A stretch of DNA of 6,514 bases from a virus (taxonomy: Duplodnaviria > Heunggongvirae > Uroviricota > Caudoviricetes), in the IMG/VR virus record IMGVR_UViG_2563366903_000006; one strand, given 5' to 3'. Made by a program: the position numbers. This document shows positions 3,001 to 6,000 of this stretch, one piece after another. How positions within the stretch are numbered: the first letter of the stretch is position 1; each line of letters begins with the position of its first letter.

Positions 3001-6000
3001 TGGATGAGGCCAGGGCAGCGAAACAGAAGGCAGAAGAGGTTGCGACAACCCGCCCGTCGGGAGAAAGCATACCTGGACCGAAAGGTGACAGGGGCGAGCA
3101 AGGACCGGCAGGTCCCACAGGTCCGAAAGGTGAGCGCGGTGAACCCGGACCTCAGGGGCCTGCAGGACAGAAAGGTGAGCAGGGCCTCCGTGGGCTGCAG
3201 GGGGCGACAGGACCTGCGGGAGCAGTGGGGCCCGCAGGCCCACAGGGACCGGCTGGTGCAGCTGGTCCCAAAGGTGATGCAGGCCCGGCAGGGCCACGAG
3301 GTGAAAGGGGACCCGCGGGGGCACAGGGTGTTCCGGGGCCGGTTGGTCCGGCAGGTCCTGCGGGTAAAACGGGGCCACAGGGCCCTGCCGGAGGGCGAGG
3401 ACCGATGGGACTGCCCGGGTTGGATGGTAAAACCGGACCACAGGGACCACAAGGACCACAGGGACCACAAGGGCCAACCGGAAGGCTGGTACCCGGGGAA
3501 ATTTACAGCATCGGAACATACATTATTGCCGCACTAGGCCCGTATATAACCGACATCGGCAGAACCTATCAGCCAGGAGAAACTGTATCGGGTTCACGCC
3601 TTAAGCGATGCGCCCTAATCAAAGACGAAAACGGAAACTATATGAAAGCTAACACCGATGGCATTGACGGCATACTATCCTCAGTTCCGGGCTCATGGAT
3701 GGTGTGTAATGAAATTACGTCGACAAATGATAATGAAAGCATCGGGCTGTTCCAGCGCGCATACTGACAGACAGGAGATGAACATGAATGTGGAAAAAAT
3801 AAGCAATCCGCAATGGGCAGATAAAGATCACACTGCTGTCAATTGCATGGTGAAGTTTGAGCACATTGAGCAGGCGGTTCCTTTCACTGCAACAGCCAGC
3901 GATACCGAAGCATACGGGCGGGATATTTATGCCGCTTGTCTGAGAGGAGAGGCCGGTGAAATTGCAGAATATGTACAGCCATCCATCAGCCCGGAAAAAG
4001 CCAGAGAACTCAAAACCGCCGGGATCAACGCCTGGCGTAATGCGATGGAAGCGGCGAACTACACGTTTGAGCACAATGGGCGTAAATGGGACTACGGGAA
4101 GTCAACGCAGACGCGTCTTGAGCCGTCGGTGGCGGCAGCGAAAGCGGGGAAACTGCCGGAGGCGTTTTTCTGGACGGATGCGGACAATAATGACGTACCG
4201 ATGGACGCTGAAACACTGATTGCTCTGAGTGCTGCTGCAGAGCAGGCGATGTTTACCAAAGGTCTGGAAATTCATGTCAGACAGCGCACGATGAAAAAAG
4301 AGATTGAAGCGCTGGGTGATGCGGAAGCTATACTGGCGTATAAGGTCGGCATGGCTGACAGGTGAAAAAAAGAGGGGCGCTCCAGCCCCTTGCTACAAAG
4401 CTATGGCTAAATAAAGAATACTCAGGTCGAGGAAATAATCTGGCAATGATAATTAAAGGAGATGCAACGGCCTCCTTCACCCCTGTCAAAGATAAAAAAC
4501 TGGGGAGTGCGTGCTCCCCGAGAGCATGATACTTGTGGTTGATAGTTATTTTTATCCGGCGACAAAGATATTGAGATGAGGGCGCGGATGCAATACAGAA
4601 TTTTCGTATTGCATGGTAACTGCTGATTCCTGAAACTGAAAGTCGTCATGAAACTGTAAGCGAAAAAACGGGGGGGACGGCACGCTCCCCAAGGTCATAC
4701 ATGAGATAGTGGTGTTTTTATAGTCGAAAGAATAATTGCATAAAAAGAGTGTAAATTAAACATTCAGGGGATACAGAATTTTCGTAGGCTGAGGGATTGC
4801 TGAAAATAATTTAGTGCGTCCTTCAATGGTCATTCAATGGTCATCAGATTGTGCTGATGTAAACAGTTAAGCACAATTTGATTATTTGACTTTCTTCTTT
4901 TTGTGACTAACTTCACAATTAAAGATGTAACCGTATACAAATTGTTGATGAATAAAGAGACAGCATAAGTGGCAGGCCAGTCGTAATGCGGATATCCCTT
5001 CGCGGACGTGATATCACCGACGTTATAGTAAGGAAATTCCGAAAAACTTCATATTAAAATTCGGAATTTCTTCAGGAGTAAGCTCATGAGAGCGGCGAGA
5101 CATCAGATTTTCTTTATATATCCGATGTTGAACTGTTTTATTTGTATACAGATAATTTTATAGGGTATACCACATGAGCAAGAAATTTACAAAGACTATT
5201 CTTTCATCTGCTGTTGCCGGTCTGTTGTTGGTGAGTGGTGGGGTTGTTGCGGCAACTCCTGATGACGTAAAAATTGGGGACGAGTACATCGTAAAATTTT
5301 ACAAGGATGGGGAAGGTGCCAAGATAGTAGACGCACAAGGAAAAGAGGTTTTAGGTGCTATTAATACAACAACAGGAAGCATCATGGCCTTTAATAAAGA
5401 GGAGGTTGCTAATTTTTTAGCAAAACACGGAGAAAGTAAAACGCAGGATTATTTTAATTCTATTGCGTATCCTGTCTACTTACCTGAGTTAAAGCTGGAA
5501 AATATTAAAAAGTTAAAGGGTACAGACGTTGAAAAAATAAAAAAAGTTAAGGATGATGTATCCAAGATTATTACCTCCAAAACCGCGGCCGATTATAACC
5601 AGGCTGTAAAAAATGGTATGAGTTCTGAAGCTGCACTGACTGTAGCTAAAGATGGTGGTGCAGTCTTAAAAGAATTCAACCGAATTGATTCGGATATCGA
5701 CCAACTGAATAAAGAGACAACTTTTGCGCTTGATGCCGATGGCAATATCACGCTGGATGAAAATCAGGGAAGCGGTGAGCGTTATTCTGTAAAACAAACA
5801 GTCGCAGATATTAAGGCTGACACTACTGTCTACCAGAATAAAGATGGCAGCTATACACTTGACCAGAGCGCACCGGGCAACGTTCGTGTGAATGATGCTG
5901 TTGTCAGCCTCGACAACAGAACCCGCAGTAACACTCAGGCTATCCAGAATCACTCCCGCCAGCTGCAGGAGCATAACGCACGCCTGAACAGCCAGCAGCG

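Follow-up and report, generated by a model that had tools for sequence, protein, structure and literature searches.

The closest described counterparts of the locus reported here, the 5' leader of an eib adhesin gene and the 25-codon open reading frame (ORF) within it (the mini-ORF), in a 6,514-nt stretch of DNA from a Caudoviricetes virus (IMG/VR record IMGVR_UViG_2563366903_000006; the whole stretch is hereafter called the window), include the translational attenuation leaders of the ermC, cat and cmlA type. As in those leaders, a short ORF bearing a Shine-Dalgarno (SD) sequence lies upstream of a structure occluding the downstream initiation region, and a ribosome in the leader would open this structure. 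Translational coupling in the RNA phage MS2 (coat to replicase) and through upstream ORFs in bacterial operons is similar in that a long-range helix masks the downstream start, translation through one strand would unmask it, and the stop lies within 10 nt of the next start. RNA thermometers (fourU, ROSE and prfA types) also have the SD or AUG of a surface virulence factor paired in the 5' untranslated region (UTR), and in leader-peptide attenuators (pyrBI/pyrL, trpL, pheL) a short leader ORF likewise overlaps a hairpin which is followed by T-rich sequence. Type I toxins (Hok, Ldr, Ibs, TisB, ShoB, Zor) resemble the mini-ORF in small size and, for one leader type only (type A), in a hydrophobic peptide and a structured upstream region. 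The same loci are present in GenBank with stem-loops (Sandt and Hill) upstream of eibA, eibC, eibD and eibE (AF151091, AF151674-6); the stem_loop of AF151091 is an inverted repeat found at 5033-5070 of the window, and its annotation contains neither the mini-ORF nor the three helices (P1, P2 and P3) described below.

Regions upstream of eib were collected from annotated phages, Escherichia coli genomes, IMG/VR and metagenomes, giving 25 distinct leaders of five sequence types (A to E) plus additional type-A variants. The eib leader is best read as an uncharacterised RNA, absent from Rfam, which masks the start site of the adhesin gene. The mini-ORF, in which the original prediction had speculatively seen a resemblance to leader peptides and small membrane toxins, is on balance probably a coding-looking shadow of this conserved structured leader and not a peptide gene. 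The features concerned, in window coordinates, were the following:

5086-5163, plus strand: mini-ORF, 25 codons plus TAG (peptide MRAARHQIFFIYPMLNCFICIQIIL), with its ATG at 5086-5088 and TAG at 5161-5163; found in leader types A, B and C, not in D and E.
5074-5078, plus strand: SD-like AGGAG, with a 7-nt spacer (5079-5085) to the mini-ORF ATG.
5162-5165, plus strand: eib SD AGGG, with an 8-nt spacer to the eib ATG at 5174; overlaps the mini-ORF stop UAG.
5064-5088, plus strand: 5' strand of P1, composed of GAAUUUCUU (5064-5072) and GCUCAUG (5082-5088, including the mini-ORF AUG); partner at 5173-5188.
5173-5188, plus strand: 3' strand of P1, CAUGAGCAAGAAAUUU, spanning the eib AUG (5174-5176) and codons 2-5.
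5090-5138, plus strand: P2, a long hairpin within the mini-ORF, shared by the five leader types, among which it shows compensatory and G-U changes.
5139-5154, plus strand: P3, the mini-hairpin of an invariant palindromic box, TTTGTATACA(R)A, the box occupying 5141-5152.
5033-5070, plus strand: upstream inverted repeat, arms 5033-5043 and 5060-5070, 11/11 complementary.
5174-6247, plus strand: Eib-type YadA-like trimeric autotransporter adhesin gene, 357 aa, with a signal peptide and a YadA_anchor domain (E=4e-16).

The fold was conserved across diverged homologues, with compensatory changes and a clear strand asymmetry. The P2 hairpin was present in each of the five types despite differing arm sequences (z -2.4 to -7.4), and the plus strand folded better than the minus strand: -13.8 vs. 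-8.9 kcal/mol in type A, -26.7 vs. -10.5 kcal/mol in type D, and -17.3 vs. -2.1 kcal/mol in one type-E leader. The minus strand folded much worse because of the G-U pairs, and the P2 structure is therefore that of a plus-strand RNA. In the P2 basal stem, which showed GC, AU and GU exchanges, 85.7% were paired vs. 74.1% in shuffles (a value reached by 0 of 500); both sides had changed in five of the eight pairs, and slid controls were only 22-63% paired. The P2 loops were large (11-15 nt) and their sequence was conserved.

When the segment from -112 to +22 was folded, the five types shared one three-helix minimum-energy architecture (z -2.6 to -6.8). Pairing between the 34 nt located 5' of P2 and positions -19 to +14 of eib exceeded that of shuffles in type A (p=0.012), type B (p=0.046), type C (0 of 500) and type E (p=0.002-0.016). 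The P1 strands differed in sequence from type to type, yet remained complementary, as listed here together with the state of the mini-ORF in each type:

Type A (window, EibA): P1 5' strand GCUCAUG and GAAUUUCUU, 3' strand CAUGAGC and AAGAAAUUU; ORF peptide MRAARHQIFFIYPMLNCFICIQIIL.
Type B (L006 and relatives): P1 5' strand UCCUCAUG, 3' strand CAUGAGGA; ORF peptide MGAEIHQIFFIHLMYFGLFVYK.
Type C (L011 and relatives): P1 5' strand AUACCCUUAUGAAA, 3' strand UUUCAUAGGGUAU; ORF peptide MKGNEVSVFLMYSDTRCSVCIQIIS.
Type D (GER2 and relatives): ATG absent, stops in frame.
Type E (EibC, EibD, EibE): P1 5' strand GGAAUAUCCUG, 3' strand CAGGAUAUCC; ATG absent, stops in frame, with a 3-codon ORF in some members.

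With the leader types out of structural register, RNAalifold detected nothing in MAFFT alignments of the hairpin region, and it was replaced by per-type folds, a register-fixed stem construct and a covariance-model alignment. The covariance model was built from type C and used to align 28 leaders: 86.9% of the cells were paired vs. 78.7 ± 0.6% in shuffles, a figure somewhat inflated by the fitting of this alignment to the structure, and both sides had changed in 19 of 38 pairs vs. 9.1 ± 1.8 (reached by 0 of 500 shuffles). By helix, such pairs amounted to 9 of 19 in P1 and 9 of 14 in P2. Slid partner columns, used as a control, were 35-55% paired, and the shuffle and slide controls as well as the independent per-type folds agreed with the covariance-model result. 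No Rfam family was detected at E ≤10 in 4300-5300, nor at E ≤0.1 in five loci.

The most conserved element of the region was the box TTTGTATACA(A/G)A at 5141-5152, a 12-bp palindrome that was invariant and showed no covariation, which suggests that it may be recognised sequence-specifically by a protein or engaged in an RNA tertiary contact. A partial second copy of the box (CGTATACAAAT) occurred in the window at 4931-4942, about 200 nt upstream, and a scan of viral contigs with the box pattern returned chance matches for the most part. The inverted repeat just upstream of the mini-ORF, to which the original prediction had drawn attention, was real; its 3' arm is shared with the outer P1 5' strand (5064-5072), so the two structures are mutually exclusive, and the choice between them could be a switch set by the position of the transcription start.

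The mini-ORF is embedded in this fold at both ends. The ATG of types A, B and C belongs to the 5' strand of P1. Its partner is a CAU beside the eib SD in types B and C, and in the window A5086, U5087 and G5088 are predicted to pair with U5175, A5174 and C5173, so that both start codons mask each other (predicted unpaired probability 0.01-0.02 for each AUG). The AGGAG represents, in type A, a conserved GGA(A/G)UA box; the ORF-less types D and E have this box as well, and in types C and E it serves as the P1 anti-SD strand. At the other end, the eib SD and the stop UAG overlap in types A and C, with 10 nt between the stop and the eib ATG in these types (5164-5173 in the window) and 18 nt in type B.

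In the model proposed, the leader would be a three-helix junction with P1 as the closing helix, P2 as a long hairpin and P3 formed from the palindromic box. P1 would join the segment just 5' of P2 to the eib initiation region, covering the AUG and codons 2-5 in the window and the eib SD in the other leader types. Its conserved function would be to mask the eib ribosome-binding site, adhesin translation requiring an opened leader. The region is presumably transcribed as the eib 5' UTR, P1 would limit eib translation, and the opening agent may be a ribosome on the mini-ORF, a protein or a small RNA (sRNA).

The sequence details of the original prediction (AGGAG, 7 nt, ATG at 5086, 25 codons, TAG and a 10-nt gap) were all confirmed. 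The mini-ORF with its SD is, even so, within chance expectation (p ~0.12): the 808-nt intergenic region contained 10 ATG-initiated ORFs of at least 20 codons, with 9.1 expected from dinucleotide shuffles, and at least one such ORF with a correctly spaced 5-nt SD core was present in 11.6% of 1000 shuffles. A second frame was also stop-free across the same 91 nt in the window, and the homologous frame was open even in relatives without any start codon.

The mini-ORF region shows no coding signature. The ORFs of types A, B and C (22-25 codons) start at the same ATG, and their peptides agree only in residues derived from conserved DNA (QIFF, CIQII). Conservation of the frame in relatives, on which the peptide interpretation depended, failed in two of the five leader types (D and E), and the frame in which type B reads the invariant box is not that of types A and C. 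The conserved CAGATTTTCTTT lay 37, 36, 48 or 47 nt from the box, a distance not conserved modulo 3, so insertions and deletions between these conserved blocks ignore the reading frame. Substitutions between types A and C numbered 10, 11 and 14 at codon positions 1, 2 and 3, and the codon differences comprised 16 nonsynonymous and 4 synonymous ones; two control frames showed the same pattern. Among 15 natural type-A variants (from 62 contig instances), there were six nonsynonymous sites, four synonymous sites and one 1-nt insertion.

Searches at the protein level gave a similar picture. When the peptide was compared with 50,697 phage records by tblastn, the check proposed with the original prediction, only eight near-identical type-A loci were retrieved, and the ORF was annotated in none of them. 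The mini-ORF peptides had a single chance match in Pfam and NCBIfam up to E=10 (Thioredoxin_2, E=0.17, for the type-C peptide), and exact-sequence look-up in a collection of 15 billion proteins found them absent. Additional type-C genomes yielded no further leader variants. The hydrophobicity noticed at the outset held for the type-A peptide (grand average of hydropathicity, GRAVY, 1.19; best 15-aa window 1.99) but not for the type-C version (best window 0.93). The mini-ORF should not be annotated as a toxin or small protein gene.

Several observations weigh against the reading of the leader as a start-masking RNA with an incidental ORF. Besides the structure-fitted alignment mentioned above, P1 was weak in type D (z -0.8 to -1.5, not significant vs. 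shuffles), and in the window it masks the eib AUG and not the SD. Start-site mapping for eib was not found in the accessible eib literature, the leader RNA itself being deduced; 168 bp upstream of eibG were enough for expression from a plasmid (PMC13534694). Three types had the ATG at an identical position and part of type E had one displaced by no more than 1 nt, the 15 type-A variants included neither a lost start nor a nonsense mutation (few changes, and little power), and the mini-ORF SD was predicted to be in a bulge or loop in types A and B: a 9-nt bulge of P1 (5073-5081) for the AGGAG of type A, and an internal loop for the AGGA of type B, which has an 8-nt spacer. Retention of the ATG, absence of disabling mutations and a bulged SD look like what a real upstream ORF would give too. 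The location of the ATG in a P1 strand and the identity of AGGAG as a form of the GGA box are, for their part, both explained by base pairing, with no coding function needed. Four type-E leaders (L058, L059, L063 and L064) had an ATG about 96 nt upstream of the eib ATG, 1 nt off the mini-ORF start and opening a 3-codon ORF (MKP, MKS or MRS), so the long ORF is less widespread than an AUG at this position.

Other putative signals were located in the surroundings of the leader:

4902-4917: candidate CRP-consensus site TGTGA-N6-TCACA (TGTGACTAACTTCACA), perfect match.
5024-5029, plus strand: TATAGT, candidate -10 element; T, A and final T invariant in the five types.
5029-5042, plus strand: RcsAB-box-like TAAGGAAATTCCGA, matching TaAGaatatTCcta at 11-12 of 14 positions; T, A, G, TCC and A invariant in all types.
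5128-5156, plus strand: sigma-70-like match TTGAAC-17-GATAAT, inside the mini-ORF, type A only.
4909 to 4881, minus strand: sigma-70-like match.
4373-4390, 4502-4519 and 4673-4690, minus strand: intrinsic-terminator-like hairpins; also 4454-4479.

Conserved -10-like elements were found at 5024-5029 and 5050-5060. There were several conserved TAxxxT elements, and a conserved -35 stood beside none of them. The CRP-like site was kept in the five leader types with 0-2 mismatches, its centre lying 256-276 nt upstream of the eib ATG. The RcsAB-box consensus TaAGaatatTCcta was taken from the literature (PMC4325325), and TAAGGAAATTCCGA could link eib to the Rcs envelope/surface-sensing system; it and TATAGT are to be taken as leads only. 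The palindrome and the TAxxxT, RcsAB-like and CRP-like elements are likely part of the promoter region. On the minus strand, four terminator-like hairpins were observed vs. 0.7 expected, one of them adjoining the stop of the DUF4376 gene in every leader type, and the window type carried the hairpin module about three times, with repeats of ATACAGAATTTTCGTA at 4593 and 4771. Together with the promoter-like match, these hairpins suggest a divergent minus-strand transcript or small RNA, the putative body of which was not conserved between types and had no Rfam match.

The alternative with the strongest claim is a functional but sequence-independent upstream ORF in types A-C, whose translation unzips the leader and couples adhesin translation to its own, a possibility to which we give appreciable but minor weight. 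A 30S subunit would bind the bulged AGGAG and initiate at the P1-paired AUG, opening P1, and the elongating ribosome would unzip P2 and P3 before terminating at the UAG, which lies within the eib SD and 10 nt short of the eib AUG. The predicted geometry suits this mechanism, as in the three types the ORF runs from the 5' strand of P1 to a point inside, or just short of, the 3' strand, the AUG of the mini-ORF and that of eib are mutually paired in the window, and types A and B leave the mini-ORF SD unpaired; the natural 1-nt insertion left the ORF intact, shifting its stop and turning the 10-nt gap into an ATGA overlap with eib; no disabling mutation was seen among the 15 type-A variants; and masking was predicted to be stable at 23-50 °C, which would call for an active opener. 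However, P1, P2 and P3 are kept without the ORF in types D and E, including the experimentally expressed EibC, EibD and EibE, the type-C SD is weak and predicted to be paired, AGGAG is replaced by the weaker AAGAG in 3 of the 15 type-A variants, and the ORF with its SD does not exceed chance. The coupling envisaged in the original prediction receives some support from the structure, since the ORF spans both strands of the predicted start-masking helix, and is weakened by the ORF-less types. Unlike the ermC, cat and cmlA leaders, the locus gave no sign of a conserved stalling peptide and has no drug-resistance context, the mini-ORF spans the whole structure and not the 5' arm alone, and two of the five leader types have no ORF; unlike MS2 and operon coupling, which can be proposed here from geometry alone, the upstream frame is a non-conserved 25-codon ORF of the 5' UTR and no structural gene. 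For the EibA-type leader, it is proposed tentatively, and with more doubt than confidence, that initiation on the mini-ORF may act as the switch by which adhesin translation is unmasked and becomes coupled to translation upstream; the same switch could be the entry point for growth conditions or trans-activators. EibG protein was near the detection limit at 23 °C vs. 37 °C (PMC4352079). An RNA thermometer was rejected on predicted melting, the unpaired probability of positions -14 to +3 shifting by no more than 0.09 between 23 and 42 °C in all types; unlike in thermometers, the predicted unpaired probability from the eib SD to the AUG was nearly constant at 23-50 °C, and the leader has a large three-way junction in place of a short melting hairpin.

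The other explanations fared less well. Action of the conserved elements at the DNA level only (promoter, operators, factor sites), with incidental RNA folds and an ORF arisen by chance, is unlikely. It would accommodate the invariant palindrome without covariation, the conserved elements upstream, the TTGAAC-17-GATAAT match and the dependence of eib expression on the trans-activators IbrA/IbrB. G-U strand asymmetry and double-sided compensatory changes in P1 and P2 are, however, unexpected for protein-binding DNA, the promoter-region elements fail to account for this strand-specific covariation, and the promoter-like match is specific to type A, sigma-70-like matches in the region being no commoner than in shuffles. 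An attenuator or terminator before eib, made up of P2 and the T-rich tract and counteracted by translation of the mini-ORF as in the pyrBI leader, is about as unlikely: the P2 base is GC-rich and followed by T-rich sequence, the mini-ORF covers the entire hairpin, and type D has eight T residues with a d'Aubenton-Carafa-type score of +13 to +22 (about 0 in type B), but the score was -20 in the window, where P2 was rejected as a simple terminator, and -34 to -37 in types C and E. Moreover, type D, the only clearly terminator-like type, has no ORF, the large sequence-conserved loops differ from those of typical terminators, no alternative antiterminator pairing to the P2 5' arm appeared in the folds, and the peptides, unlike those of pyrBI, trpL and pheL, contain no conserved run of regulatory codons. 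A type I membrane toxin under a nearby antisense small RNA, as suggested by the hydrophobic type-A peptide and by minus-strand terminator-like hairpins 400-800 nt upstream, is very improbable. In contrast to Hok, Ldr, Ibs, TisB, ShoB and Zor, the peptide is not conserved (nor is its hydrophobicity, in type C), matches no toxin family in Pfam or NCBIfam, is missing from two leader types and always occupies a fixed position directly upstream of eib. On the minus strand, promoter and terminator matches neither overlap the ORF nor adjoin it, there being none within 5000-5300 and the nearest lying at or below 4909, and the sole direct repeat joining the upstream region to the mini-ORF is a 9-10-nt match. 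The toxin or leader-peptide interpretation was largely not supported. The reading of the mini-ORF as a non-coding by-product of the structured leader was ranked first, since the structure is complete in types D and E despite their lack of the ORF, and since both peptide and frame are unconstrained.

The window corresponds to the late-operon end of a lambdoid E. coli prophage, and its other features were as follows:

1686-3767: ORF for a collagen-repeat tail fibre.
Ending at 4365: DUF4376 tail-fibre-assembly-like gene, separated from the adhesin gene by the 808-nt non-coding stretch.
6272-6304: terminator-like hairpin ACGGCAG...CTGCCG followed by TTTT, directly 3' of the eib stop.
6336-6514: ORF-156, a conserved hypothetical gene, start only (in L002: 5160-5630).

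The stretch 4380-5300 was 99.5% identical to E. coli chromosomes and 92-97% identical to the phages PhiR5, PhiR12 and P-EibA, in which eibA, encoding an immunoglobulin-binding protein, lies downstream; the intergenic region was 92% identical to that of P-EibA. The leader region was found in 40 of 5426 complete E. coli genomes, many with several copies each. A profile search of genome contigs with the Eib alignment retrieved distant YadA-like genes only (Neisseria, Moraxella, Proteus and others), none of them with the leader. The adhesin of the window (5174-6247) was aligned with those of L001, L002, L004-L007 and L011: EibA (L001) shares the leader of the window with a protein identity of 42% only, and L004 and L007, which have a type-D leader and match over the full length, were 67-69% identical. 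Leader type appears uncoupled from adhesin sequence in this comparison, and the leader, signal peptide and anchor behave as conserved modules flanking a recombining passenger domain.

The hairpin at 6272-6304 matches the second stem_loop of AF151091, so that eib is bracketed like a moron cassette. ORF-156 was found downstream of eib at every locus and had no match in Pfam, NCBIfam or PDB sequences; its C-terminus (LTMSEMVVMFGYVY...IHTKTVNTFLYTGMAKNGL) resembles by eye a LuxR/GerE-type helix-turn-helix, and it could be a cassette-encoded regulator. The tail-fibre ORF contained long Gly-X-Y tracts at about 2390-2880 and 3070-3480, collagen-like tracts of this kind being typical for prophage tail fibres of pathogenic E. 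coli.

Eib proteins are prophage-borne immunoglobulin-binding adhesins which confer chain-like adherence and serum resistance in Shiga toxin-producing (STEC) and commensal E. coli, and their expression is strongly condition-dependent (static vs. shaken culture, 37 vs. 23 °C). A mechanism for this dependence was not found in the accessible literature. The annotation lesson is a negative one, in that even a mini-ORF with a good initiation context did not warrant a toxin or small-protein gene call. The relevance of the locus is chiefly to the regulation of Eib and of trimeric autotransporters: the conserved start-masking leader offers a concrete, testable site for post-transcriptional control of Eib and, if true, a leader opened by the mini-ORF would be an uncharacterised riboregulatory element setting the surface expression of these adhesins.

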